From NCBI GenBank assembly GCA_018821245.1, contig JAHJMO010000002.1:9231-73230 (forward strand): DNA of 64,000 nt. The letters run 5' to 3'. Shown piece by piece: positions 2,042-63,807 of this stretch (the stretch's first letter is position 1; each line of letters opens with the position of its first letter). The translations under genes were made by a program, and so were the position numbers. The notes under the pieces were generated by a model. It was not told the origin of the DNA and made no database searches. It saw nothing but the letters and a program-made list of their open reading frames with translations. This DNA comes from Patescibacteria group bacterium (GTDB lineage: Bacteria > Patescibacteriota > Microgenomatia > UBA10105 > UBA927).

Positions 2042-2840
2042 TTTGTTTGGCTAAATCTGCTTTGCCGCTTTCGACAATTCTGCCTCCTACCAACACATGC
2101 ACGAAGTCCGGCTTGATATACCGCAGGATCCTTTGGTAGTGGGTAATGATGATTATGCCGGAGCCGCCTTTCTGAAGCTTTAGGATGCCTGCAGCTGCTA
2201 CCTTCAGCGCGTCGACATCAAGTCCTGTATCTATCTCGTCAAAAATGGCAAATTTCGGCGAAAGGACGAGCGCCTGGAGCATCTCCGACTTCTTCTTCTC
2301 ACCGCCGGAAAATCCATCGTTGACGGCCCGCTCCAAAAATGACCGATCTATATGAAGGAAATCCGTGCGGGACTTAACTTTGTCCATAAACTCAGATACG
2401 GTAAGCCCTGCCGCCCGCCAGCGGCGCGCAAGAAGAGTGTTCTGGATAAAGGGTGAGCGGACTTTATCGACTCCTGCGGCCCGATGTGTTTCCTGATAGG
2501 AAGTCCGAAGCAGCGATAGTACCCCGACTCCGGCGATGGCAACCGGAGACTGAAATGCCAAAAATAACCCCAGTCCGGCGCGTTCATCTGTCGGCAAATC
2601 AACAATATTTCTTTTCCCGAGCCAAATTCCAGTCTTCCGTACGGTATACTGCGGACACCCCATAAGCGCCTGCGCAAATGTTGATTTTCCGCTGCCGTTG
2701 GGGCCCATGATCGCATGTACCTCGCCGCTTCGCACGGAAAGCGAGATGCCTTTGAGGATTTCTTTTTTCCCTGCAAAGACCCGCAGATTGGTAATCGTGA
2801 GTTTTTCGCCCTTACCGGATTTTTGACGCTTTATGCTCAT
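1989..2840 (-). CDS. sufC: Fe-S cluster assembly ATPase SufC
   Basis: ABC ATPase: Walker A GPNGSGKST, signature LSGGEKKK, Walker B AIFDEIDTGLD. The 3' end overlaps sufB by about 50 nt. Confidence 0.88.
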   Translation of the reverse strand: MSIKRQKSGKGEKLTITNLRVFAGKKEILKGISLSVRSGEVHAIMGPNGSGKSTFAQALMGCPQYTVRKTGIWLGKRNIVDLPTDERAGLGLFLAFQSPVAIAGVGVLSLLRTSYQETHRAAGVDKVRSPFIQNTLLARRWRAAGLTVSEFMDKVKSRTDFLHIDRSFLERAVNDGFSGGEKKKSEMLQALVLSPKFAIFDEIDTGLDVDALKVAAAGILKLQKGGSGIIIITHYQRILRYIKPDFVHVLVGGRIVESGKADLAKQIEKEGYGKYINNEKSII

Positions 2841-2849
2841 GCTTTCTCC

Positions 2850-3644
2850 TTATAACCTATCGGACACTGTGTCTTTTTTGCCCATATACACCTCGCAAAC
2901 CCCATGCATACGCAGGATAAAATACTCCTTCTGCGCCATCGGGTTGCCTTTCAGCGACAGGAGCGCATCAATTTCTTCCGTTGCCGCACCATAGGCGCCG
3001 ATGGCCTGCGCCTTCTTTTTGACAACCTTGTGGATATTAATTACGGTAGTAACGGATTTATCGGGTATTTCCGCCCAAAACCGGCCGGACGGATCAACGC
3101 GTATGACTTTCTGCTTCTTCAGATACGCTATGACAGAGGCCGGCAAACAGGCGTAATATAACTTCACATCCTGCGTGGTCTCCTTTCTGCTTTCGGCAAG
3201 GGTCTGCCTTTCCCAAAACCGTTTACCCCGCTGTCCCGGAACCTGCACGGTGGAAATGCTTTTGGCATATTTTTGAAAAACAAACGTCGCAGCCAATGAC
3301 GCTTTCTTGTGGTCCGGATGACGGGTAATACCACCCGGCTCAAGCGTAATGACCACGTCAGGACCATAATCCTTTACTATCGGGAACAATGTGCCCTCCA
3401 ACTCGCCCGGCGAAAGGAGCGCAAGGGCGCCGGCATCATAATCCAGAACGGTATACGTACCGATGTTCAGTATTTCTGCAGTTTTCCCGGGCGTGGGATC
3501 GGAAAATTCGCATTCGCCGGACTTCCCGCGTGAAGCACAAATCAGATGTATATCCCATCCTGCTTTGGAATATTTTGCTATCGTTCCTCCGGCAAACAAA
3601 GACTCGTCACCGGCGTGTGCAACAACGAAAAGCAGCTTCTTCAT
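2850..3644 (-). CDS. PIG-L/LmbE family N-acetylglucosaminyl deacetylase
   Basis: N-terminal VVAHAGDES (a variant of the AHPDDE motif), the HPDH motif and ~260 aa size are typical of the PIG-L family. Confidence 0.65.
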   Translation of the reverse strand: MKKLLFVVAHAGDESLFAGGTIAKYSKAGWDIHLICASRGKSGECEFSDPTPGKTAEILNIGTYTVLDYDAGALALLSPGELEGTLFPIVKDYGPDVVITLEPGGITRHPDHKKASLAATFVFQKYAKSISTVQVPGQRGKRFWERQTLAESRKETTQDVKLYYACLPASVIAYLKKQKVIRVDPSGRFWAEIPDKSVTTVINIHKVVKKKAQAIGAYGAATEEIDALLSLKGNPMAQKEYFILRMHGVCEVYMGKKDTVSDRL

Positions 3645-3704
3645 GCATGCTATGGTACTGCATTTTTCGAAAAAAGAGAAACCCTGCTTCCTTCTTGCCT
3701 CCCC

Positions 3705-5396
3705 CTAACCGGAAAGCATGGCCACAATCTCATTTTTAATGCTCTCCCGGCCCTCCCTATCCGTGGGTACAAACTGTAGAAGCATTTCCATTTTGCCCGT
3801 CAACTTCTTATACATACCCGGTCCATACGCGCTATCTATGAGGCCTTCCCATTGCTCTTCTTTTTGGGAAATGTACACGGCTCTCATCTCATGCATGGAT
3901 ACACGCTTCAGGATCTCCATGAGCACCAGGACTTCCTCGTCATACGCATACGAAAGCGGTGCCGAACCGGAAAACTGGCCAAGGTATGTGTGTGCAAAAA
4001 AATCCGTCATTGCTTCGTTATACACGTCCGGCAGAGTCGCATCTTTCTGATAAGAGTAATAATGCAGTAACTCGTGAACCGCAATGGTCAAATAGTGCAA
4101 CAGCTTCTTCTGATCGCCGGAGTATTCCATGATAATGCCGTCGGGCGGGTGGAAAACGCCTTCTTCATAAACCGGTGTTCTGGGGTTCTTCCTGAAATCT
4201 TCGTAGGCTTTCTGCCAGGATCCTAAAACCTCCTGATAACGGGACAAGGAAAGGCGGGTTTGATTGACATACTCCTGTATTTCAGTATTTGCCTGATCGT
4301 ATTTGGAAAGTTCACCCTCCCAACGCGAGCGTTCATCCGTACAATACTGATCGTCTTCTCCTTTTACACGCCGGCAGGAGTCATACCACCGGGAAAGACG
4401 CGACGCAGAGGAAGCTTTGCTTTCGTCGTTGGAACGGACGGCTTCTTCGTTTGTAATAATATTGTTCTGAAGGTCCGAAACAGCTTTTTTGGCCTTCGCT
4501 ATCCCGGCAAGTAAACGGTCTCCCTGTTCTTTTTCCTGATCAGTGCGTATCTTAAGATAGTCTTCCGGCAAAGCTACAGCGATGGAATAGTCCGACCCCT
4601 TGACGCTCACAACGTCAGGCAAGCCCCTTGCAACGACGTGGTACGCAAGGATGGGAACAACGCGCGAAACCATGTCAAATGAAACACGCTGGACGGCAAG
4701 AATATAATCCGAAGGAATGTAGACTATGTCAAACGGTAGCGCATCCTGCCACTTCTGTAGTTCCATGGAAGACTTGTCTATGATATCCCGCAATATATAA
4801 GCTTCATAAAACGTCTTCTTCTCAAAATTATCCAACGAAAACCGCGCGTACATGAGATCTTTGGCAAAATCGTCGGAAGCGTCTATGATCCTGGGTACCT
4901 CACTCTCCACCGACAACACATCTTCCACCTGGCTAACACCGATTATCATTCCATCTTCGGGTGAAGGATAACTAAAGCGCTCTTGTTCTGCGCGCATTGA
5001 TTGCCGCGCTTTACTCCTAAGGGCTTGCGTCACGCCAACATCTGCGATCACTATGACGAGAAAAATAGCCGGCGTAAATAACAGGAGACAAGCACTCCAC
5101 CGCAGGCGGCGCCGCGCCCGCATATACAACGATAGTGCAATCGAACAGATAACTCCGGCAATAATGCCAAAGATAACTGCGTAAGCGAGTGGCGCTATCG
5201 GGTGAGCTCCCAGTATTTCGCCGGGCAGACGTAAAAAAAGAGAGATGCGCTGGGGCTGGGCTATATACGAACGCGCCGTTGTGGCATAAGAATATTCTAT
5301 GCTCGGAAGAGCTACGGAAATAAATGCAAACAGGATCCCAAAAAGGATAGTACACCACCGAAAAATACGGTCGGCATGTCCAGTGTTTTGCTTCAT
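3705..5396 (-). CDS. membrane-anchored protein with central coiled coil and C-terminal HExxH (zincin-like) motif
   Basis: N-terminal TM helices, a long charged and coiled region, and C-terminal ...IAVHELLHYY...NEAMTDF (HExxH...E). The longer ORF to 5450 would overlap the divergent gene, so the internal ATG at 5394-5396 (MKQNTG...) is the preferred start. Confidence 0.5.
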   Translation of the reverse strand: MKQNTGHADRIFRWCTILFGILFAFISVALPSIEYSYATTARSYIAQPQRISLFLRLPGEILGAHPIAPLAYAVIFGIIAGVICSIALSLYMRARRRLRWSACLLLFTPAIFLVIVIADVGVTQALRSKARQSMRAEQERFSYPSPEDGMIIGVSQVEDVLSVESEVPRIIDASDDFAKDLMYARFSLDNFEKKTFYEAYILRDIIDKSSMELQKWQDALPFDIVYIPSDYILAVQRVSFDMVSRVVPILAYHVVARGLPDVVSVKGSDYSIAVALPEDYLKIRTDQEKEQGDRLLAGIAKAKKAVSDLQNNIITNEEAVRSNDESKASSASRLSRWYDSCRRVKGEDDQYCTDERSRWEGELSKYDQANTEIQEYVNQTRLSLSRYQEVLGSWQKAYEDFRKNPRTPVYEEGVFHPPDGIIMEYSGDQKKLLHYLTIAVHELLHYYSYQKDATLPDVYNEAMTDFFAHTYLGQFSGSAPLSYAYDEEVLVLMEILKRVSMHEMRAVYISQKEEQWEGLIDSAYGPGMYKKLTGKMEMLLQFVPTDREGRESIKNEIVAMLSG

Positions 5397-7888: not shown

Positions 7889-8593
7889 TTAGGCTATACC
7901 AAAATAATCCCGATAAGGCGAATCATCTTCTAGAGTCGTTGCGACAATATACAATACCTCGTTGCCTACACCATAATATTCTTTCAGAAAAGTCACCTGT
8001 TTTTCACAAGGATATGGATATAACCAAACGCTTTCCTGCAGCTTACAAAATCCTAAGGCTCGCAACGCTTCGCGAAAAACATCGCGCAACCGTTTTTTTC
8101 TGTTTTCCACATCGTAGACAATCAGCCTCCAACGACCGTCCCATTGTCTAGGCTTTTCGATAGATAATTCATCGAGAGCATATTTTAAAATTCTGCGCTT
8201 ACCCGCTTCTGAGAGAACTACTACTTCCTCACCGTTTTGCCCCTTAATTTCAACATATTTTTGCTTATGAAATCGTTTAATCGCTGAACGTAAATACGAA
8301 GGATTATATTGCTTCCAAACTTCATATTTCTTTCGTCGTTCTTCGTCCAAAAAAGGCTTTGCCAATATTGCGGCGGATGGCGAAATAAACGACAATCCTA
8401 CTACACCAGCTAAACCGAGAAACGCAAGAATATGCTTAACTGGAGCGTAGCGGCGATGAATTTCTTCCTGATGAATCTGTTTTGCCAGAATCGTTGATAG
8501 CTCTGCAATTCTTTCATCAGAAGGAACTGTAAGCTGTGTATCTAATCGTAGTCGTTTCTTTTGCTTGATTGTTCTTATTGATACCATAAACAA
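7889..8593 (-). CDS. PaaX-family-like transcriptional regulator homolog with N-terminal TM segment
   Basis: ...VVVLSEAGKRRILKYALDELSIEKPRQWDGRWRLIVYDVENRKKRLRDVFREALRALGFCKLQESVWLYP aligns to the E. coli PaaX segment YSLSDKGLRLTRRAESKIYRAEQPAWDGKWLLLLSEGLDKS...GFGAL.PSLM. The region after the WDG motif also looks Cas2/VapD-like (YDV..R.K..R......G....Q.SV), an observation made from the sequence here. Confidence 0.5.
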   Translation of the reverse strand: MFMVSIRTIKQKKRLRLDTQLTVPSDERIAELSTILAKQIHQEEIHRRYAPVKHILAFLGLAGVVGLSFISPSAAILAKPFLDEERRKKYEVWKQYNPSYLRSAIKRFHKQKYVEIKGQNGEEVVVLSEAGKRRILKYALDELSIEKPRQWDGRWRLIVYDVENRKKRLRDVFREALRALGFCKLQESVWLYPYPCEKQVTFLKEYYGVGNEVLYIVATTLEDDSPYRDYFGIA

Positions 8594-8616
8594 ATTTATC
8601 TTTTAATTCACTTTCT

Positions 8617-8660
8617 TCATACTACAAAATATTCACGCCATGGCTTGGGTATTTTGTAGT
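8617..8660. repeat. palindromic hairpin element copy 2 (tactacaaaataTTCACGCCATGGCttgggtattttgtagta)
   Basis: Same core and inverted-repeat arms as copy 1. Confidence 0.7.
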
Positions 8661-8831
8661 ATACCCTATTTATTAAGCTGGTGACAAGTGACGGCAAGCG
8701 AATAAATGATGACAATAATAATCAAGTAAGTGAGACGAAAGAAAATTTGAGGTATAATATGATCTTAAGTAAGGTTACTTAATAAGTATAGGCAGTTTCT
8801 GATTTCGACTGTCATAAATTGGGATCTTGGC

Positions 8832-8904
8832 TGGGAGATCGTCCAATGGTAGGACAACAGACTCTGGATCTGTTTATCTAGGTTCGAATCCTAGTCTCCC
8901 AGCC
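8832..8904 (+). tRNA. tRNA-Gln (anticodon CTG)
   Basis: Hand-folded cloverleaf: acceptor UGGGAGA/UCUCCCA (U1-A72 and G73, typical of bacterial tRNA-Gln), D-arm GTCC-AATGGTA-GGAC, anticodon arm ACAGA-CTCTGGA-TCTGT (anticodon CUG), T-arm CTAGG-TTCGAAT-CCTAG. CCA is not encoded. Confidence 0.8.
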
Positions 8905-8931
8905 TAGATCCTAACGTGGGATGTACGCATA

Positions 8932-9291
8932 ATGTCCAAGAGGACACTTGTTGCGGAGAATGGCGTTTTAACGTTCTATGGAAAAACTAAATTTTCTTGG
9001 GGAGAATTACTTATTATTGGAGTGACAAAAAAATTCAGTATTGGCGTTGATACGATAGTTCCTCATAAGGAAACCGACAAAGAAGGTACGTATTTAAAAA
9101 AAGGTCGTGTGATGTATTTTGTAATCAAAGGAAGAGGACTATGTGGAGACAAACCAATTAAAAGTGGCGATATCCTGCAGATTAAAGAGGGGCAAAAGAT
9201 AAACATACAAAATAATTCTTCAAAAAAATTAATAATCATAACAATCTATATGCCTCCGTATAACGAAGATAATATTGGATATGAAACATAG
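8932..9291 (+). CDS. hypothetical small protein, possible cupin-like beta-barrel
   Basis: 119 aa, AT-rich, with a weak cupin-like G-x5-PHKE...E...G pattern. First gene downstream of tRNA-Gln in the low-GC island. Confidence 0.3.
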   Translation: MSKRTLVAENGVLTFYGKTKFSWGELLIIGVTKKFSIGVDTIVPHKETDKEGTYLKKGRVMYFVIKGRGLCGDKPIKSGDILQIKEGQKINIQNNSSKKLIIITIYMPPYNEDNIGYET

Positions 9292-9439
9292 CGCAAGACA
9301 GGCAACAAGAATTTACCATACACAACTGTATACTGATAAGAAATTATTTCGGAAAGGCGCGTCGTGGTTAGATAAGCCAGAAAAATAAATTCTTTCAGTT
9401 ATTAAGAATAATTTTCTTGGCAAAAAGAACATTAAAGTT

Positions 9440-9982
9440 TTGGATTTGGGTTCTGGGGTGGGAAGAAACGCAATTCCTATAGCTCAAATGATTGGGAAAT
9501 CAGGTGGAGAAATTATTTGCGTGGATTATCTTGATGTCGCAATTGATAAACTACATGAATATATAGAACTATACAATGTAAGTAAATATATAACAGGCAT
9601 TTTTTCTTCACTTGAAGATTTTGTTATAAACCCAGATGATTACGATTTCATCATCGCCCATAGTGTTTTAACTCACATGGAGAATAAAGAGAAAATGATT
9701 CAAACAATGAAAGATATGGCAAAGGTCACAAAGAAAAACGGTTTTGTGTATATGTATGTAATTACTAATCACAGAGAATTTGATAGAAAGACAGGAAAAG
9801 AACAGAAACTTGAAGATGAGGTAGAGATTGGCTTTGACGAAGCATGTTCATTTCTCAAGAATATTTATAGTGGATGGACAATACTGGCATTAAAGAAACA
9901 TCCGTATGAGGAAACGTTTAACAGACGAGGCAAAGAAATACGTTGGAATGTTGACTATTTGTTATTTATAGCAAAAAAATAA
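9440..9982 (+). CDS. class I SAM-dependent methyltransferase (N-terminally short or truncated)
   Basis: Starts at motif I (LDLGSGVGRN) with an acidic residue after beta2 (VDYLD). A TTG start and an in-frame stop at 9386 leave at most 17 aa upstream of motif I. Confidence 0.6.
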   Translation: MDLGSGVGRNAIPIAQMIGKSGGEIICVDYLDVAIDKLHEYIELYNVSKYITGIFSSLEDFVINPDDYDFIIAHSVLTHMENKEKMIQTMKDMAKVTKKNGFVYMYVITNHREFDRKTGKEQKLEDEVEIGFDEACSFLKNIYSGWTILALKKHPYEETFNRRGKEIRWNVDYLLFIAKK

Positions 9983-9993
9983 CAATAATAATC

Positions 9994-10014
9994 TCTAGAC
10001 CGGCCAGCTCAGCT
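9994..10014. repeat. post-stop inter-cassette motif copy 1 (tcTAGACCGGCCAGCTCAGCT)
   Basis: Shares the consensus AGACCGGCCNGCTCAGMTCAGG with copies after three other consecutive genes. Confidence 0.7.
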
Positions 10015-10018
10015 AAAT

Positions 10019-10516
10019 ATGTCAACAGAAATTCATCAAGATATAAACAAAGCAATACTTATTGTGCGTGATGCAGGGAGATGGCTAAAAGAGAGTGGAA
10101 AAAATCCTTCTAAATGGTGGTTATTAAAAAACCTCAATAAAAAATTTCTTTTAAAGTATGCAAAACCTGAAGAATTTTATGTAGCTTTAGTTGATAACAA
10201 ACCTGCAGCTGCAGCCGTACTTCAGTTTAGTCAAAAAGCTCAAGATTGGAAAAGTATTGATAAAGATAAACTCAAATCCGTTCTTTATATCCATTGGCTT
10301 TGTGTTCACAGAAAATTTGCAGGAAAAGGTTTTCCGAAAATAATGGTTGATTTTGCAGAAAAGTTAGCCAAAGAAAAAAACGTTAAACTTTTACGAGCCG
10401 ACACTAACGCAAAAGAGATGAAATTGAGAAAAATCTACGAGGATTTAGGGTTTAATTTTGTCGGCGTTGAGCAAGAAAATTATCGCCATACAGCCTTTTT
10501 TCAAAAAAAGATATAA
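10019..10516 (+). CDS. GNAT family N-acetyltransferase
   Basis: ...LYIHWLCVHRKFAGKGFPKIMVDFAEKLAKEKNVKLLRADTNAKE....IYEDLGF. GNAT motif A (R/Q-x-x-G-x-G/A) and the overall topology are present. Confidence 0.7.
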   Translation: MSTEIHQDINKAILIVRDAGRWLKESGKNPSKWWLLKNLNKKFLLKYAKPEEFYVALVDNKPAAAAVLQFSQKAQDWKSIDKDKLKSVLYIHWLCVHRKFAGKGFPKIMVDFAEKLAKEKNVKLLRADTNAKEMKLRKIYEDLGFNFVGVEQENYRHTAFFQKKI

Positions 10517-10521
10517 TTGCC

Positions 10522-10545
10522 CTGGATCGGTCAGCTCAGATCCTG
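10522..10545. repeat. post-stop inter-cassette motif copy 2 (ctGGATCGGTCAGCTCAGATCCtg)
   Basis: Same motif family; it has internal dyad GGATC...GATCC. Confidence 0.65.
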
Positions 10546-10601
10546 AAAAAAGACATCTTAGCTCTCAGCCAAAGGTAGATTTCAACAGCTTTGGAGGAAC
10601 C

Positions 10602-10639
10602 CATCCGTATGTGTCTAGCTAGCACACACCGGGTGTGTG
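10602..10639. repeat. 38-bp dispersed element copy 1 containing the perfect inverted repeat CACACACC-G-GGTGTGTG
   Basis: catccgtatgtgtctagctagcacacaccgggtgtgtg is identical to 11900-11937. It also contains the CTAGCTAG palindrome. Confidence 0.8.
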
Positions 10640-10650
10640 AATTATATATT

Positions 10651-11274
10651 ATGTTCAAAAATAAATTATTTTTGATTATTGAAACCGGTTATTTGTTTAT
10701 TTTCCCTTTGATTTTGCTGCGCTTTTATCCAACCTTCATTCACTACCGCATTTATGTATTGATGGGCAGTCTCATTTATATTTTTATTGTGGTTTATTCT
10801 CAGAAAATTACCAGTAAAAATCTCGGGCTTAATCCGAGCAGATTCTTTCCGGCAACCAAAGCGCTTTTTATACCTACTGTGCTTAGTATGTTACTGACTT
10901 TTGTTTTCTTTCAACTCGCAAGAAAGTGGTTAATAATTCCTGTGCTTGTTGAAGAAATTCGAACTCCTTCTATAGCCGTTTCTGTTTTAACTTATATTTT
11001 TGTTTCGGCTCCACTGCAAGAATTTGTGTATCGCGGCTACTTAGTTTCCAGACTGGAAATCGTTTCTCGTAATGCAACTTTTATAAAACTTTATAGCGCA
11101 ATAATCTTCATGGTAATTCACACGCCGTTTTACAATTGGTTTTTACCATTGGGTTCGCTAATTTTAGGCTTGCTCTGGACTGGTAATTTCCTTACATATA
11201 GAAACGTTTATGCCTTAATGCTGAGCCATACTCTAATCGGAGCCACGTATATTATTCTGATGGGTATGAGTTAA
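10651..11274 (+). CDS. CPBP family intramembrane metalloprotease (CAAX protease/Abi-like)
   Basis: Polytopic membrane protein with CPBP motifs QEFVYRG (motif 1), FMVIHTPF (FxxxH, motif 2) and SHTLIG (motif 3). The ATG at 10651 is preferred over the TTG at 10591. Confidence 0.65.
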   Translation: MFKNKLFLIIETGYLFIFPLILLRFYPTFIHYRIYVLMGSLIYIFIVVYSQKITSKNLGLNPSRFFPATKALFIPTVLSMLLTFVFFQLARKWLIIPVLVEEIRTPSIAVSVLTYIFVSAPLQEFVYRGYLVSRLEIVSRNATFIKLYSAIIFMVIHTPFYNWFLPLGSLILGLLWTGNFLTYRNVYALMLSHTLIGATYIILMGMS

Positions 11275-11283
11275 AAAAGGTCC

Positions 11284-11309
11284 CAGACCGGCCCGCTCAG
11301 CTCAGGCCC
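11284..11309. repeat. post-stop inter-cassette motif copy 3 (cAGACCGGCCCGCTCAGCTCAGGCCC)
   Basis: Same motif family, followed by a hairpin ctgacgggcag...ctgcccgtc. Confidence 0.7.
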
Positions 11310-11403
11310 TGACGGGCAGGGGTCTTTGGTATCCTGGTTCACTGCCCGTCGGCTTTACCGAAGGCAATGCAGGTAGGGAATCCAGGCTGGGCAGCAAATA
11401 ATT

Positions 11404-11817
11404 ATGAATACACAAAAAATAACAGCTAAGTTAAAATCATTTTATCCTGGCAGGAAAGTTATAGTTACTGATCCCCTGAATCCGACTGAAATTATTTGTG
11501 AAGTCGAACTAACAGAAGAACATCCGAAGTGGAGTGTTGCTGTTGCGGTCATCGATTCTACTCGTTTACATTACCATAAGCGGTTAACAGAGATATATCA
11601 TATTATGAGTGGTAAATTGAACATGTATCTTAATGGCCAACTGCACCAGCTACAACAAGGCGATATTATAAAAATTCCTCCAAACACACGTCACTATTCC
11701 ATTGGTAATGAAACTATCGTGTATGTCTATGCAACACCTGGTTGGGCGCCTGAGGATCATGTCTTGGTGATTGATAAAAAGGAAATATCCAGAAAGAAAT
11801 ACGACAAGAGGTTCTAG
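11404..11817 (+). CDS. cupin domain protein
   Basis: HYHKRLTEIYHIMSG ... GD.IKIPPNTRHY fits the two-motif cupin pattern; 137 aa. Confidence 0.6.
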   Translation: MNTQKITAKLKSFYPGRKVIVTDPLNPTEIICEVELTEEHPKWSVAVAVIDSTRLHYHKRLTEIYHIMSGKLNMYLNGQLHQLQQGDIIKIPPNTRHYSIGNETIVYVYATPGWAPEDHVLVIDKKEISRKKYDKRF

Positions 11818-11840
11818 ACCGGCCTGCTCAGATCAGGACC
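11813..11840. repeat. post-stop inter-cassette motif copy 4 (tcTAGACCGGCCTGCTCAGATCAGGACC)
   Basis: Here the TAG inside the motif is the stop codon of the cupin gene. Confidence 0.7.
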
Positions 11841-11899
11841 CAGGAAGAATTTTCCGGTTCACGGCCAAAGGCTGATTCTCGACAGTTGTGAAGAGCTTT

Positions 11900-11937
11900 C
11901 ATCCGTATGTGTCTAGCTAGCACACACCGGGTGTGTG
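11900..11937. repeat. 38-bp dispersed element copy 2 (inverted repeat CACACACC-G-GGTGTGTG)
   Basis: Identical over 38 bp to copy 1. Lies about 215 bp upstream of the hydrolase gene. Confidence 0.8.
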
Positions 11938-12153
11938 CAAACAAATTCTCTGCAGTATGAAGCGCAAAGGAGAACCGGTACAGAAGAGAGCGGAACTGAA
12001 GATGGGTAATCCCGATGACGGATAGGAATAGGTCTGGATGTTTGGTAAGATAGTCTAGGTTCATAGGGCAGGACACCTCCTGCCTCTAGTGTAGTATCAA
12101 AAGCTATTTCACTACAACTCTATTTACATACACTTTACTGGGATAGTTTATAC

Positions 12154-12879
12154 ATGAAACAGATTGAATTTTTGGTCAATAATCGAATACTTAAAGGAAC
12201 GCTCTTCTCCTCTCACAACATCAAAGCAAAAAATCCCGCAATTCTCTTTATTCATGGATGGACGAGTGAAAGAGCAAGAAGTTATCAATATGCAAATGCA
12301 CTTACAAAACTTGGCTACATTTCTTTTTTGTTTGATATGAGGGGGCACGGCGAAAGCGAGGGCGATATAAATAGCTATACACCGAAAGAATTCTTTGCTG
12401 ATGTTCTAGCGGCTTATGATTATTTAGCCAAGGTTGAAAATGTAGATAAGGAGAATATCAGTGTTGTGGGCAGCAGCTTTGGATCATATCTCGCAGCGCT
12501 CCTAACCACTAAAAGGAATGTTAAGCGTTTAGCTCTCAGGGTTCCAGCTGATTACCCAAACGAGAATTTTAATAAATCTAAAATACAATCCAGTGGAAGC
12601 AGTAATCCCAAACTGGTATTATGGCGTAAACAAATAAAGAAATCACCGGAAACATTTGCGCTTGAGGCGATTGCTAGTTTTGACGGAGAAATTCTGATAA
12701 TTGAATCGGGGAAAGACAACTCTGTTCCTCACCAAACAATCCAAAATTACATAAACGCAATAAATGACAAAAATAAATTAACTCATATCGTAATGAAAAA
12801 CGCACCGCACAGCATAAAAGAAGGTCCGTTCAGAGACGAGGTAGAAAAAATTTTGGTAGATTGGTTTAAAAAAGGATAG
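12154..12879 (+). CDS. alpha/beta hydrolase (dienelactone hydrolase / esterase-like)
   Basis: HGW oxyanion region, nucleophile elbow VGSSFGS, later Asp/His (ESGKDNSVPH), ~240 aa. Confidence 0.65.
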   Translation: MKQIEFLVNNRILKGTLFSSHNIKAKNPAILFIHGWTSERARSYQYANALTKLGYISFLFDMRGHGESEGDINSYTPKEFFADVLAAYDYLAKVENVDKENISVVGSSFGSYLAALLTTKRNVKRLALRVPADYPNENFNKSKIQSSGSSNPKLVLWRKQIKKSPETFALEAIASFDGEILIIESGKDNSVPHQTIQNYINAINDKNKLTHIVMKNAPHSIKEGPFRDEVEKILVDWFKKG

Positions 12880-12881
12880 CT

Positions 12882-12900
12882 GCACACGCCGGGTGTGTGC
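12882..12900. repeat. degenerate third copy of the inverted repeat (GCACACGCC-G-GGTGTGTGC)
   Basis: One mismatch relative to a perfect dyad. Located between the convergent hydrolase and 12912..13358 genes. Confidence 0.6.
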
Positions 12901-57670: not shown

Positions 57671-58858
57671 TTAAGCGATAATCTTGATAATAACTCCTGC
57701 TCCTACCGTGTGTCCACCTTCCCGAACAGCGAACCTCAAGCCCTCCTCAAGGGCTACCGGCACAATAAGCTTCACGGTCATCTTGGTGCTGTCTCCCGGC
57801 ATAACCATCTCAACACCGGCAGGGAGCGCTACTTCGCCGGTTACGTCTGTCGTCCCGATATAAAACTGCGGGCGGTATCCGGTGAAGAATGGTGTATGGC
57901 GACCACCTTCTTCTTTGGCCAATATATACACCTCTGCTTCAAACTCTGTATGAGGTTTGACGCTTCCCGTGGCTGCCAAAACCTGACCGCGTTCCACTTG
58001 ATTCTTTTCTATTCCTCGCAGAAGTACCCCGATATTATCCCCCGCCAAGCCTTCATCAAGAATTTTGCGGAACATCTCAACGCCGGTGACCACCGTCGAC
58101 TGTGTGGGTTTAATACCGACAATCTCAATCGTTTCATTGACCTTTACCTTACCGCGCGATACACGGCCGGTGACTACCGTTCCACGCCCCTTGATAGAAA
58201 AGACATCTTCTATGGGCATAAGGAATGGCTTATCCAAATCTCTTTTTGGTTCGGGTATATAGTCATCCACTGCTTTCATAAGCTCGTTAATGCTCTTTTC
58301 TGCTTCTGCTTCTCCCTGTAGCGCTTTTAAGGCTGAACCGCGTATGACCGGCACCTTATCTCCCGGAAAATTGTATTTGGTCAGAAGTTCACGCACTTCC
58401 ATTTCTACCAAATCCAGAAGCTCCTTATCCTGCACCATGTCAACTTTGTTCATAAAGACGACAATTGCCGGAACGTTGACCTGTTTGGCAAGAAGGATGT
58501 GCTCGCGGGTTTGCGGCATCGGTCCGTCCGGAGCCGATACGACAAGAATGGCCCCGTCCATCTGCGCAGCACCCGTAATCATGTTCTTGATGTAATCTGC
58601 GTGACCCGGAGCGTCTATGTGAGCATAATGCCTTTTCGCTGTTTCGTACTCCGAGTGGTGGATGTTGATGGTAACGCCCCTCGCTTTTTCCTCCGGCGCA
58701 TTATCTATCTCCTCATATTTCAAAGCTTTTGCCATGCCGGCTTTCGCAAGAACATGAGTAATTGCTGATGTAAGAGTGGTTTTGCCATGATCGACATGAC
58801 CGATGGTACCGATGTTTAAATGCGGTTTAGTCCGCGCAAACTTTTGCTGATCAGCCAT
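57671..58858 (-). CDS. tuf: elongation factor Tu
   Basis: [22 protein letters not shown]; 395 aa. Confidence 0.95.
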
Positions 58859-58931: not shown

Positions 58932-61037
58932 CTATGAGGTTTTTGCAATGATCTTTTCCTGAATGTTCTTCGGCACTTCCTCGTAATGGCTGGGTTCCAT
59001 ATAATACGTAGCCCTTCCTTTTGACATACTTCGGAGTGTCGTCGCATAACCGGCAAGCTCGGCAAGCGGAACAAAAGCGATAATAATTGTTACCATCCCA
59101 CGTTTTTGCGTTCCTTGGATCTGCGCGCGTTTGGCTCCAAGATCGCCTATAATATCTCCCATAAATTCATCGGGGGTCGTCACTTCTACCTTCATGATAG
59201 GCTCCAAAAGCGTAGGCTGAGATTGTTTCACAGCATGCTGAAGAGCCATGCTTCCGGCAATCTTGAATGCAATCTCCGAACTATCTACGTCATGGTACGA
59301 GCCGTCATAGAGAGTAACCGTCAGGTCCACCATGGGATAGCCTGCTAAAACACCATTTTCCGAAGCTTCCTTCACTCCTTTTGCGATAGCAGGAATGAAC
59401 TCTTTGGGTATTGCTCCGCCTTTTATCGCGTCCACAAATTCATACCCCTCACCACGGCCTTTAGGTTCAACCCGCAGGAAACAGTGTCCGTATTGGCCCC
59501 GACCTCCGGACTGGCGTATATATTTCCCTTCTCCTTCTGCCGATTGTCGAATGGTTTCTTTGTACGCAACTTGAGGAGCGCCAACGTTGGCCCCGACTTT
59601 AAACTCACGTTTCATCCGATCTACTATAATCTCCAGATGAAGCTCTCCCATACCCCAAATTATGGTTTGATTGGTTTCTAAATTGCTTTTGATTTTGAAT
59701 GTCGGGTCTTCCTCGGAAAGCCTTTGGAGTGCATACCCCATCTTTTCCTGATCGTTTTTGGTCTTGGGCTCTATAGCCAGAGATATGACCGGATCCGGAA
59801 ACGTAATTTTTTCCAGAACGATCGGCTTGTCATGGTCGCATAGAGTATCACCGGTTGGGGTATCTTTGAGACCTACAACTGCTACAATCTCCCCTGCGTA
59901 CGCTTCTTTAATTTCTTCTCTTTGGTTAGCATGCATAAGAAGGAGTCTCCCGACACGCTCCTGAATCCCTTTCGTCGGATTGAACGTATAAGAACCCGAA
60001 GCGAGCTTCCCCGAATATAAACGTACGTATGTCAGCTTCCCTACATGAGGATCGATTTGAATCTTAAACGCCAAACCGGAAAATGCTTCATTGTTGACAC
60101 GCCTGCGTGTTTCTTTCGTCCCTGTCTTTGGATTTATACCTTCAACAGGCTTTAAGTCCAGAGGAGACGGAAGATAGTCAACTACGGCATCCAATAAAAG
60201 CTGTACCCCTTTGTTTCGTAAGCTTGATCCTGCATAGATCGGGACCAGCTGGTACGAAATGACTGCTTTCCGAAGCGCAATTTTGAGTTCTTCTATCGCG
60301 GGTTCCGTGCCGTTTAAGTATTTTCCCAAAAGAACGTCGTCTGTTTCCGAAATACGTTCAACAAGGAGGTGGCGTTGCTTTTCTACATCTTCTTTGAGAT
60401 TGTCGGGTGCAGTATCGGTGACATCAAACTTTGCCCCCATCTCATCACTGCCCCATATACACACTTTGCGCGTCAGAAGATCGATAACGCCTTTAAATTC
60501 ATGCTCCCTGCCGATAGGAACAACCATCGGCGCAGTATGCGCACCGAGACGCTCTTCTATAGATTTAATTGTCGCATAGAAATCGGCACCGATTTTATCC
60601 ATCTTATTGATAAAACACAGGCGGGGAACGTTGTACTTGTCCGCCTGATGCCACACGGTCTCCGACTGACTCTGCACGCCCTCCTCCGCATCAAGAACCG
60701 TAATGCCGCCGTCAAGGACCCGAAGAGACCGTTCTACTTCTGCTGTAAAATCCACATGACCGGGAGTGTCGATGATATTGAAGCGATATCCGTTCCAGAA
60801 TGTTGTTGTTGCCGCTGACACTATCGTGATGCCCCTCTCCTTCTCCTGCTCCATCCAATCCATTTGGGTAGTGCCCTCGTCGATGTTGCCGATTTTGTAC
60901 GTCCTTCCTGTATAGTAAAGGATGCGCTCGGTCGTTGTGGTTTTTCCGGCGTCGATATGGGCAATGATGCCGATGTTACGCACCTTTTCCAGGGGTACGT
61001 CACGGTCCAATGTCAATTTGGTTTGTGGTGATGCCAT
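58932..61037 (-). CDS. fusA: elongation factor G
   Basis: [25 protein letters not shown], domains III-V; 701 aa. Confidence 0.95.
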
Positions 61038-61341
61038 AAAATATTAAAAACTGTCCCACCAAGCCGGCGGAACAGCCATGCTTCTTTCCTCCTCATTGTA
61101 CTAAAAAGGCAACGCGTTGTCTAGAATTCGCCCTTCAGTGAGGTTGTACGCTGGAGAGTCAATCCAGTATTCTAAAATCATCCCCCTCTAAAGACACTTC
61201 GGTTGACTCAGTGTAAACAGGCAGGCAACAAACGGGCAAAGTAGTTATTTATGAAATCAAAATTACCAAAACCGTGCCTAAAAGAGAACCGTCCCCTCGT
61301 ATAGTAAATAAATGGACAGCAAGGGATAAGATAACCCGTTA

Positions 61342-61536
61342 TTATTTCAATGTTGCAGAAACTTTATTCGGGGCAATCATATTTGCAGTTATTTCTGCAG
61401 CGTTTCGGGGAACATTAGCATAATCTAATAAAGATTCTGCTTTTTGCCATAATTTATATTCATAATCAACCACTGCTAAATCTAAAGGGCAACCAAGCAG
61501 TACCGGAGTGGATGGATCAGGTGGTTTAAGAGACAT
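61342..61536 (-). CDS. small hypothetical ORF in low-GC insert (possibly a gene fragment)
   Basis: 64 aa, AT-rich, no recognisable family. Confidence 0.2.
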   Translation of the reverse strand: MSLKPPDPSTPVLLGCPLDLAVVDYEYKLWQKAESLLDYANVPRNAAEITANMIAPNKVSATLK

Positions 61537-61668
61537 CGTAGTAACGTCAACTGTTCCTAATTTATAGCAATTTACTTCTGATTGGCCTTCCGTTGGGTTC
61601 CCAAATCCGAATAATGTTCCGGCGTGAGGTGGTACTTGCGCAATAACAACAGGATAAGTAGCAAAATT

Positions 61669-61887
61669 TTAATTGATTAGTGCTAGTAGGCGTTGTTCAT
61701 AACCGTCAATTTTACCTTTAGGTTGATGTCCCCACTCATAAATATCCGGATTCGGCCTACCTTTAATATTACCAAAATATATAATGACGACTTGTTTATC
61801 TCCCGGAATTACTCTAATTTCACGGATAGAACCGTTAAAAGGTAAGGATTCCACAATCGATTTAGATGTTTTGTCTTCTGATGACAT
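61669..61887 (-). CDS. small hypothetical ORF in low-GC insert (possibly a gene fragment)
   Basis: 72 aa, AT-rich, no recognisable family. Confidence 0.2.
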   Translation of the reverse strand: MSSEDKTSKSIVESLPFNGSIREIRVIPGDKQVVIIYFGNIKGRPNPDIYEWGHQPKGKIDGYEQRLLALIN

Positions 61888-61899
61888 ATTTTATAAATA

Positions 61900-62190
61900 T
61901 CAATTTTTATTATAATAACAATAATTGATACGAAAGGCAACACAGCGCACAGCGCACAGGTCTTTTTTTATCACGTTCAAAAACAAAAAATATTTCTGTA
62001 TTTTTACTAAGCGGCCGCGTGTGTAATTTACAGATATAAAAATCTTTAGAATATGATATTCAGTTATGAGATTTCTCATTCCCGCTTCTAGAAGTTTCAT
62101 GCCGGTTGTCGTTGGAAGTAAATTAAAATCGCCACAGAGAATTTTTGCTTCATCTCTTTTAGACAGAAAATCTTTAAAATGAATCTCCAA
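61900..62190 (-). pseudogene. C-terminal fragment of an endonuclease/exonuclease/phosphatase (EEP) family gene
   Basis: ORF begins ...EAKILCGDFNLLP, the EEP catalytic GDFN motif that normally lies in the C-terminal third. No upstream N-terminal domain is present. Confidence 0.4.
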
Positions 62191-62270
62191 GGGCTGAAAG
62201 CCCTCGGATAGTCGTTTAAGACATTATATACATCTAGTTAAATATCCCTACACCCTCCGGGTGGAATTGA

Positions 62271-62888
62271 TTACACCAGACTTTTCCAAAGAATACGCGC
62301 GGCCCACGTGCGGTACGGGGACCACTTTATGCTCATGCGGGAGAGCTTTTGTGGGGAGGGTTCATGGCGCAAACCATAAAACTTTTTCACTGCTTTCCGA
62401 AGCCCTAGATCGCCGCAGGAAAATACATCCTCCCTGCCTAATGTAAACATGAGAAACATTTCCGCAGTCCAAGGGCCGATCCCTTTTATCTTTGTAAGCT
62501 CCTTGATGACTTCTTGGTCCGTTAATTGGGCTAATTGGTGTAATTGGATGGACTTGGTGACCACTTTTTGGGCAAGGTCTTTGATAAACCGTGTTTTTGA
62601 CCACGACATGCCGGTTCCACGAAGCGCTTCATCAGAAAGACGGAGAGTATCGTGAGGCGTGACTCTTTTAGGAAGGAATAATTGCCGGAATCGTGCAAAT
62701 ATTATGTCTGCCACTCTTCCTGAAAGCTGTTGGCCGATGATTTCTGTACATAAACCGACGAAATACCGATGGGGCAAGCGAGGTTTAATGTCTTCTACGA
62801 GTACGTTCTTTGCCAGGGAATACATGACGGGATCAGCAGATTGAAAATGGTCAACAGCTTCCTGCTTCATGGAAGATTGCATTACCAC
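62271..62888 (-). CDS. DNA-3-methyladenine glycosylase II (AlkA-like, HhH-GPD superfamily)
   Basis: LTKIKGIGPWTAEMFLMFTLGREDVFSCGDLGLRKA is the HhH-GPD motif with catalytic Asp. Lies immediately downstream of rpsG, inside the str operon. Confidence 0.75.
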   Translation of the reverse strand: MVMQSSMKQEAVDHFQSADPVMYSLAKNVLVEDIKPRLPHRYFVGLCTEIIGQQLSGRVADIIFARFRQLFLPKRVTPHDTLRLSDEALRGTGMSWSKTRFIKDLAQKVVTKSIQLHQLAQLTDQEVIKELTKIKGIGPWTAEMFLMFTLGREDVFSCGDLGLRKAVKKFYGLRHEPSPQKLSRMSIKWSPYRTWAARILWKSLV

Positions 62889-63355
62889 TTAAAGTGCGCA
62901 AACGCTCTGTTCGCTTCAGCCATGCGGTGCATGGTGTCTCGTTTTTTAATCGCTTCTCCCTGATTATGAGAAGCATCGATAAGCTCTGCAGCAAGCTTAT
63001 CTGAAAATGTTTTGTATTCTTTATTGGAGCGCTTTTTGGCAAAAGCGATAATCCACCGGAGCGCCAAGGCTAAGCGTCTGTCTCCCCGTACTTCCGAAGG
63101 GACCTGATACGAAGCTCCCCCAACGCGCCGGGCGTGAACTTCTGTCTTGGGGCCAACGTTAGCAACCGCGGTTTCAAATATTTTAACCGGATCTTCACCT
63201 TTCTCTTTGATAAGATCAAATGCACTGTAGACAATCTTTTCGGCTATAGCTTTTTTGCCGCTCTGCATTACCCGGTTAACAAATCTGGTAATAAGCCTAC
63301 TCCCATACAATGGATCCGTCGGTAATAATCTTTTTGTTGAACGTTTGCCTCTCAT
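62882..63355 (-). CDS. rpsG: 30S ribosomal protein S7
   Basis: MRGKRSTKRLLPTDPLYGS.LI..F.N..M..GKK..A; 157 aa. Confidence 0.92.
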   Translation of the reverse strand: MRGKRSTKRLLPTDPLYGSRLITRFVNRVMQSGKKAIAEKIVYSAFDLIKEKGEDPVKIFETAVANVGPKTEVHARRVGGASYQVPSEVRGDRRLALALRWIIAFAKKRSNKEYKTFSDKLAAELIDASHNQGEAIKKRDTMHRMAEANRAFAHFKW

Positions 63356-63369
63356 AGTCTCAATAAAAG

Positions 63370-63807
63370 CTAGCTGGCCGCTGCGACAGCGGGAGCTTGT
63401 GCACCTGCTTTCGTACCGTAGCGGCTTCGGCCCTTTTTCCTGTTTACAACACCGGAAGCATCGTATTTACCACGGACGATATGATACTTAACGCCGGGAA
63501 GATCCGGCACTCTCCCTCCGCGTACCAAAACAATGGCGTGCTCCGTGAGCTCATGACCGATACCGGGAATGTATGCGGTAATCTCCTGCCGGTTGGAAAG
63601 CCTGACGCGGGCAACTTTACGAAGTGCTGAATTGGGTTTTTTCGGGGTCATCGTTTTCACGAGTGTCACGACCCCGCGTTTAAACGGCGCATGGAGCTGT
63701 TTGGTAACATGATCCTTCGCGTTAAAAAATTTACGAAGCGCGGTCGCCTTGACCTTTTTACTTTTGCGCTTGCGTCCGTATTTGATGAGTTGATTGATCG
63801 TAGGCAT
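63370..63807 (-). CDS. rpsL: 30S ribosomal protein S12 (with ~20-aa C-terminal extension)
   Basis: [10 protein letters not shown].....K..ALR....PQKRGV...[19 protein letters not shown]. Confidence 0.92.

Follow-up and report, generated by a model that had tools for sequence, protein, structure and literature searches.

The str operon is split between rpsG and fusA in a 64-kb window from a Patescibacteria group bacterium (64,000 nucleotides of contig JAHJMO010000002.1; 'the window' denotes this whole stretch, and all coordinates given here are positions within it). From the rpsG stop to the fusA ATG we measured 1,844 nt, in keeping with the split of about 1.85 kb described in an initial annotation made from the sequence alone. 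This gap holds an HhH-GPD open reading frame (ORF) and ORFs of 96, 72 and 64 amino acids (aa); like all genes of the locus these lie on the minus strand, co-oriented with the operon as had also been described. We consider it probable, at roughly 75%, that a str operon in two units is a long-standing feature of the Gottesmanbacteria-type clade (Microgenomates, Candidate Phyla Radiation or CPR) to which the uncultured source of the window belongs, that cargo genes have turned over between the two units, and that decaying remnants of this process occupy the gap in the window.

If this is so, the first unit would comprise rpoB-rpoC-rpsL-rpsG together with a native glycosylase gene and would end at a hairpin at 62186-62208, while the second would run from fusA through tuf and the S10 gene onward, with its own conserved promoter at 61095-61123 and a short leader containing a hairpin and U-tract; the boundaries of both transcripts are those that we infer. 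The space between the units would be a long-lived site of gene turnover, occupied in relatives by 1 to more than 10 kb of cargo on both strands, and the genome represented by the window would have lost nearly all of its cargo, such that the glycosylase gene is left together with the AT-rich remains of two acquired genes, about 0.85 kb in all. The sequence of the locus was found in three independent metagenome assemblies at 99.96-100% identity; thus neither the arrangement nor the lesions in its genes are assembly artefacts.

Age of the gap between rpsG and fusA

The relatives compared here are fetched loci (L numbers) and homologous proteins (P numbers). One scan, for the glycosylase, drew on one genome per GTDB species with an alignment as query and yielded 80 loci, in which neighbouring genes were located by tblastn of the window proteins. 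A second, for EF-G (the fusA product) on metagenome contigs, samples the rpsG-fusA junction independently of whether a glycosylase gene is present. Both rpsG and fusA were found in 72 loci, and in these the gap is measurable.

The median gap over the 72 measurable loci is 92 nt, and it is at most 200 nt in 52 of them. Such tight junctions are the rule where EF-G is less than 65% identical to that of the window (44 of 54 loci) and at 65-70% identity (8 of 11). By contrast, none of the 11 loci whose EF-G reaches 70% identity has one: the gap measures 952-7,987 nt, or rpsG is missing from the fetched upstream flank, which extends up to 10 kb and is shorter than 4 kb in two short contigs. Gaps are 952-3,539 nt at 70-79% EF-G identity; elsewhere they reach 7,116 nt in L087, 6,107 nt in L089, 7,987 nt in L092 and more than 10 kb in L090 and L085. 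The gap in the window is among the smallest within its clade. As all close relatives are gapped and distant loci are mostly tight, these comparisons indicate that the split between rpsG and fusA is an old trait of the clade and not a recent event.

This bears directly on the initial annotation, which had read the whole 1.85 kb, glycosylase included, as one recent and partly decayed insertion of foreign low-GC DNA into an intact operon. The gap is real, its middle is AT-rich and the genes there are broken, and in most of the distant bacteria sampled rpsG and fusA do lie close together (the 52 of 72 loci above). A recent insertion is nonetheless contradicted by the relatives with EF-G at least 70% identical, every one of which is gapped (952 nt to more than 10 kb), mostly by more than the window, and by the conservation among them of the fusA promoter and leader described below. 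The glycosylase gene, to which we return in the next section, speaks against it as well.

What occupies the gap differs from one relative to another. According to the gene tables of three homologue loci, genes in both orientations, spanning from 6.5 kb to over 10 kb, lie between rpoB-rpoC-rpsL-rpsG-glycosylase and fusA-tuf-rpsJ; the cargo in these three loci includes DsbD/thioredoxin, VKOR, DsbA, SDR, a Crp-type regulator, LigT and GSDH, among others. Between relatives the cargo differs but partly overlaps: a PD-(D/E)XK nuclease, DUF2130 and PGA_cap are found in both L089 and L092, LigT in L087 and L089, and GSDH in L087 and L007, and further relatives' cargo comprises AbiE, radical SAM, EamA, glyoxalase and PNPOx genes. 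Within the rpsG-fusA gap of L092 (positions 2472-4001 of that locus) we observed an AbiEi/AbiEii-like toxin-antitoxin pair and a fragment of an EamA transporter, which shows that defence or toxin-antitoxin modules also land at this site.

Gaps were also observed outside the close relatives. Five distant Microgenomates-like loci with EF-G 63-71% identical (L097, L099, L107, L110 and L113) have gaps of 2.6-7 kb, and more than one break of the junction may have occurred among CPR bacteria. As a separate matter, many of the species-representative metagenome-assembled genomes (MAGs) from which loci were fetched (L007, L009, L010, L012, L018 and others) carry Microgenomates-type genes under titles such as 'uncultured Gammaproteobacteria' or 'uncultured Candidatus Saccharibacteria', and these titles look taxonomically wrong. 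In L007, for instance, EF-G is 81% and EF-Tu 90% identical to the corresponding protein of the window.

The glycosylase gene that follows rpsG

The HhH-GPD gene (62271-62882, minus strand) is intact and encodes a protein of 203 aa which scores 52.8 bits against Pfam family PF00730 (gathering cut-off 26.2; E = 5.9e-14). All 42 invariant columns of an alignment of 34 homologous sequences are present in it, and the segment KGIGPWTAEMF...GDLGL, invariant across the 34 homologues, aligns with GIGRWTAEMF...GDLAL of the solved structure 2yg8. The protein thus has the HhH motif, the Gly/Pro-rich loop and the conserved catalytic Asp (that of GDLGL) by which members of this family are recognised. Its nearest solved structures are 2yg8, the best of them at 3e-31, 2h56, 3s6i, 4b21 and 4hsb (matches from 3e-31 to 3e-22); we take 2yg8 and its companion 2yg9 to be Deinococcus radiodurans AlkA2, 2h56 to be a Bacillus halodurans glycosylase, and 3s6i, 4b21 and 4hsb to be Mag1 and Mag2 of Schizosaccharomyces pombe.

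The protein resembles the compact AlkA/Mag-type glycosylases in having a single HhH-GPD domain of about 200 aa with the GIGxWTAEMF motif and a conserved Asp some 20 residues downstream. It differs from Escherichia coli AlkA in that the N-terminal AlkA domain is missing, and orthology to that enzyme was rejected: the equivalog model NF007641 of NCBIfam (PRK10308) gave 35.8 bits against a cut-off of 229 and matched residues 75-199 only. By its homology to the solved enzymes, the gene is predicted to encode a compact 3-methyladenine-type DNA glycosylase.

The position of the gene, joined to the 3' end of rpsG, is unusual. The upstream gene order in the window is rpoB-rpoC-rpsL-rpsG-glycosylase: rpsL (63370-63807, minus strand; S12, 145 aa) lies 3' of rpoC, as given by its ORF and by Pfam-annotated gene calls on the identical contigs L001 and L002, and is followed by rpsG (62882-63355, minus strand; S7, 157 aa), which matches PF00177 (E = 1.6e-57) and ends in the TAA at 62882-62884. 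Around this stop the sequence reads AAGTGGTAATGCAA, in which the glycosylase ATG at 62882 overlaps the TAA by 1 nt (TAATG). Gene callers picked this ATG on three assemblies and the homologue alignment favours it too; other possible starts are a GTG at 62888 and an ATG at 62870, and the ORF taken from its first possible start spans 62271-62888. The initial annotation was therefore right about an HhH-GPD gene overlapping rpsG, while its figure of 7 nt for the overlap requires the less likely GTG. The corresponding junction is TAATG in L084 and TAAATG in L006. An overlap of stop and start codons in the form TAATG is a classical arrangement for translational coupling, and since the glycosylase start lies at the rpsG stop or adjoins it, the gene is probably co-transcribed and translationally coupled with that of S7.

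Three lines of evidence point to a native gene. First, its GC content (GC) is 0.471 and its GC at third codon positions (GC3) 0.49, close to the 73 larger ORFs of the window (mean GC 0.457, standard deviation 0.047; z = +0.3) and comparable to rpsG (0.460) and fusA (0.478); the mean over the whole window is 0.458. Second, its nearest homologues (60-67% identity, about 200 aa, all with PF00730) are from Candidatus Gottesmanbacteria, followed by those from Roizmanbacteria and other Microgenomates. Third, the order rpsL-rpsG-glycosylase is common to at least nine distinct related genomes of Gottesmanbacteria type, about 77% identical in RpoC; linkage of the glycosylase gene to those of S12 and S7 was located by tblastn in L004, L005, L006, L010, L048 and L053, and is present also in L084 and L085. 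In L007, the glycosylase gene lies 3.1 kb before fusA.

On these grounds the glycosylase gene is native, neither foreign nor of low GC, contrary to the foreign, alkA-like gene of the initial annotation. That annotation had itself allowed that a glycosylase gene conserved at this position across the whole lineage would mark an old, fixed feature, and the gene follows rpsG in at least nine related genomes. Taken with the gaps in all close relatives, this leaves a single recent insertion of the whole 1.85 kb very improbable.

Promoter and leader of fusA

The downstream unit is headed by fusA (58932-61037, minus strand; 701 aa, with the Pfam EF-G domains) and continues through tuf (57671-58858, minus strand; EF-Tu, 395 aa, from its ORF and gene calls) to rpsJ, rplC, rplD and beyond. 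Upstream of fusA we found a predicted promoter, TAGACA-17-TACAAT, on the minus strand at 61123-61095, with 10 of 12 matches to the consensus. The exact pattern TAGACA-N16-18-TAnAAT occurs once in the 64-kb window, where 0.09 occurrences are expected, and the same motif is found 83-103 nt before the fusA ATG in L007, L048, L087, L090 and L092, with the near-variants TGGACA and TAGACG in L089 and L091. The motif thus has the hexamers, the spacing of 16-18 nt and the conserved position (in seven relatives) of a sigma-70-type promoter. As the motif, in the form TAGACA-N17/18-TAnAAT, keeps its place before fusA in relatives with other genes upstream, fusA appears to have its own promoter inside the gap, and this promoter is old. 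Of the two routes that the initial annotation had named for fusA expression, a new promoter within the insert or read-through, the promoter is borne out at 61095-61123; that it would be a new one is not.

Between the predicted promoter and fusA lies a G+C-rich leader hairpin (61077-61039, minus strand; 12-13 bp), in which 13 pairs are followed by TTTTTAATATTT and the U-tract ends 2 nt before the fusA AUG. The folding energy of the leader is -19.5 kcal/mol (z = -3.2), and its hairpin and U-tract are those of an intrinsic terminator or attenuator. A G+C-rich hairpin and five to seven U just before the AUG were found in nine of nine close relatives, with unrelated stem sequences; the stems are not alignable at the sequence level, as is usual for terminators. 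A strict detector of a hairpin with a U-tract was positive in five of seven loci with EF-G at least 79% identical, in 4 of 54 more-distant loci and in 2% of random windows. In L087 the leader is preceded by a gene in the opposite orientation; the hairpin is therefore part of the fusA leader and does not serve to terminate transcription of a gene before it. The leader may be an attenuator-like control element or a 5' stabiliser. Like known terminator-like elements upstream of fusA, a hairpin with a U-tract at this place could allow fusA-tuf expression to be set independently of rpsL-rpsG; unlike them, the hairpin in the window is downstream of a dedicated promoter, and it shares no sequence with them. 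An alternative anti-terminator fold was not identified either, though no systematic search for one was made. A search of the gap and leader against Rfam, at the gathering score and at E up to 10, returned nothing credible, and a scan of the window placed no tRNA gene or Rfam family within the rpsG-fusA region.

A small upstream ORF overlies the leader hairpin (61079-61044, minus strand): its 11 codons (MAVPPAWWDSF, then a stop) are preceded by GGAGG at good spacing, are in frame with fusA and end 6 nt before the fusA ATG. A conserved leader peptide was rejected, as the counterpart ATG is missing from L089, L090 and L091, stands in another frame in L007, and in L087 and L092 opens a frame that continues into fusA without an intervening stop. 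Shine-Dalgarno use is patchy in this genome, and fusA is thus not special in being without such a sequence.

At the other end of the gap, a terminator-like hairpin (62208-62186, minus strand; 10 pairs, six of them G-C) lies 60 nt after the glycosylase stop and is followed by a weak T-run. By its position it probably marks the end of the rpoBC-rpsLG-glycosylase transcription unit.

We also considered whether the locus is a single functional unit, in which transcription from rpoBC and rpsL reads through the glycosylase gene and the remnants into fusA and neither the promoter nor the hairpins are used. All features are co-oriented, the U-tract of the hairpin that follows the glycosylase gene is weak, and promoter-like and terminator-like matches in the region are overall no more numerous than in shuffled sequence, each of which is compatible with read-through. 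In relatives, however, some of the intervening genes are oppositely oriented and the gap can exceed 10 kb, which means that fusA cannot have been expressed ancestrally by read-through; moreover, the promoter motif, present once in the 64-kb window, is retained at the homologous position in relatives, exactly in five and nearly so in two. We therefore regard a single read-through unit as distinctly unlikely and retain the arrangement in two units.

Decayed genes in the gap and the arrangement as a whole

The middle of the gap differs from its surroundings in composition. The segment 61342-62190 has a GC of 0.351 and a GC3 of 0.25 (z = -2.3 against the 73 window ORFs), and only 2.2% of equal-sized windows are as low in GC, the others all within a block at about 8.4-10.3 kb. 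The low GC attributed by the initial annotation to the entire gap thus applies to these approximately 0.85 kb, and not to the rest of the 1.85 kb, where the glycosylase gene has native GC. The only other segment of the window as AT-rich is a block at 8450-12900 (GC 0.32-0.38), directly downstream of tRNA-Gln(CTG) at 8832-8904. It contains six co-oriented plus-strand ORFs (8932-9291, 9440-9982, 10019-10516, 10591-11274, 11404-11817 and 12154-12879) and resembles a tRNA-adjacent island.

Homologues were found for two broken genes of the gap. The first gene is represented by the 96-aa ORF within 61915-62180 (minus strand; GC 0.333), in which the initial annotation had recognised a C-terminal fragment of the EEP family. 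Pfam alone gives it little weight, as the ORF scores 13.5 bits against PF03372 (E = 0.062), below the gathering score of 24.5; homology to P0122, an intact EEP protein which passes the same model with 32.5 bits, bears the identification out. Amino-acid identity to P0122 is 86% over 42 residues, and 62054-62177 is 82% identical over 124 bp to the intact gene (P0122, on L169). The remnant retains the ...ILCGDFNLLP... segment of EEP proteins. Unlike them, it comprises only the 3' third of a gene and lacks the complete catalytic core: after ...NLITEYH an indel or frameshift has occurred, beyond which the 3' tail is still alignable to the P0122 gene, and the C-terminal catalytic SDH of P0122 has become SYQ in another frame. 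Roughly the first two thirds of the gene have been lost from its 5' end; the remnant lies only 80 nt from the glycosylase stop, and the nominal TTG start of the ORF is overlapped by the hairpin at 62186-62208. As judged from these lesions, the 96-aa ORF is an EEP pseudogene and not a functional member of the family.

The second gene occupies 61342-61887 (minus strand; GC 0.375, GC3 0.23) and had been described as two small AT-rich ORFs. AT-rich they are, but the 72-aa and 64-aa ORFs are halves of a single gene, about 181 codons long: they share a frame and, when joined, are 49% identical over 181 positions (93% of the joined translation) to the 194-aa protein P0123. An in-frame TAA at 61669-61671, where P0123 has Lys, splits the gene, and there is no frameshift. 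Because the lesion is a single nonsense codon, the sequence suggests that the gene was inactivated recently.

The family to which this gene belongs is rare: 1.84 billion protein representatives gave 23 matches. About 14 of these are small proteins and credible, whereas the giant proteins matched are of the HYR-repeat surface type and probably spurious. Pfam, PHROG and NCBIfam contain no model that matched the family. An AlphaFold model of a family protein is confident (predicted local distance difference test, pLDDT, 85; predicted template modelling score, pTM, 0.81), and a Foldseek search with this model against PDB and BFVD gave no match; the family may represent an uncharacterised enzyme fold. 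Its members P0123-P0126, P0129, P0131 and P0139-P0145 are 160-200 aa in length and share invariant or near-invariant residues (Gly, Ile-x-Gly-Arg, Trp, Pro-His, Glu-x-Asn, Cys, Glu and Trp). The neighbourhood of the homologue P0124 offered no functional clue and contained no EEP gene. Between the interrupted gene and the fusA promoter is a non-coding spacer (61124-61341) without recognisable relics of the cargo genes that are found here in relatives; relics of that cargo, sought throughout the gap in the window, gave chance-level matches only.

Two origins of the remnants were compared. They are plausibly genes acquired horizontally from a lower-GC source and then decayed, which is the reading that we find best, and the initial annotation's account of foreign DNA, inserted and partly decayed, would then hold for about 0.85 kb (two dead genes of deviant GC), although not for the whole 1.85 kb. 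They might instead be the last native cargo of the clade, with a low GC that arose through AT-biased mutation after inactivation. Pseudogenes do drift towards AT, and all relatives carry cargo at this site. Hallmarks of mobile elements are also wanting: the locus yielded neither an integrase nor a transposase ORF, flanking repeats are short and at chance level only, no tRNA target was found at the gap, and phage and plasmid collections contained no match to either pseudogene. However, the 170 fetched loci, among them the rpsG-fusA loci of relatives, contain no homologue of either gene, and the intact homologues elsewhere are already AT-rich (GC is 0.35 in the EEP gene of L169, on a contig that otherwise has 0.47, and 0.36 in the L170 gene). 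The frame of the 181-codon gene is otherwise intact, and an inactivation as recent as this implies would leave too little time for a large drift in GC. Native cargo that became AT-rich by decay is thus unlikely as the source of the remnants.

Several of these observations nevertheless weigh against the arrangement that we favour, in which two old units flank a site of gene turnover. The missing mobile-element hallmarks are one, and the low GC of the remnants could in part derive from AT-biased decay and not from a foreign origin. The poor T-run of the hairpin after the glycosylase gene leaves room for read-through into fusA, and a hairpin with a U-tract downstream of the fusA promoter would also terminate that promoter's own transcripts. 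The glycosylase gene is not in the gap of the closest EF-G relatives, L089 and L092, nor in that of L093 or L095, and is away from rpsG in L016, L019 and L054, which are labelled Gottesmanbacteria. Given these absences and displacements, its linkage to rpsG, although frequent, cannot be called universal, and in the loci compared is a sub-clade trait with losses or gains; in more-distant CPR groups the gene is not near rpsG. In favour of the arrangement, distances between glycosylases over nine genomes correlate modestly with those between RpoC proteins (Mantel r = 0.40, P = 0.024). For S12+S7, small ribosomal proteins that vary too little to inform such a comparison, Mantel r was -0.09. The pair L006 and L053 is discordant, with close RpoC (86%) and distant glycosylases (50%), which fits simple vertical descent poorly.

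Multigene insertions between translation-machinery operons are known from Proteobacteria (Brandis, Cao and Hughes 2019, PMC6735719). As in those cases, conserved ribosomal and transcription gene clusters are here parted by cargo in certain lineages, and each part has its own expression signals; unlike them, the break in the window is inside the classical str operon, between rpsG and fusA, it is in a CPR clade, and its cargo has continued to turn over. A stronger version of our reading would make the junction a maintained turnover site, framed by an S7-coupled glycosylase gene and by a fusA promoter whose leader is a clade-specific, undescribed autoregulatory attenuator; in this full form we consider it doubtful. 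If the coupling of the glycosylase to S7 is true, it would tie alkylation repair to ribosome synthesis, and if the leader is an autoregulatory attenuator of the fusA-tuf-S10 super-operon, it could respond to a ribosomal protein or to translation status. Otherwise the locus is a case of ordinary operon splitting and pseudogene decay, with nothing far from known phenomena.

The gene order rpsL-rpsG-fusA-tuf, often taken to be near-universal, is thus stably broken in an entire group of CPR bacteria, in which the break serves as a site for accessory genes. For annotation, and for binning of CPR genomes by marker genes and synteny, a gap between rpsG and fusA is then to be expected in this group and does not indicate mis-assembly. 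The glycosylase gene, probably coupled to that of S7, and the conserved promoter and leader of fusA provide testable cases of how expression of the translation machinery may be laid out in uncultured organisms.

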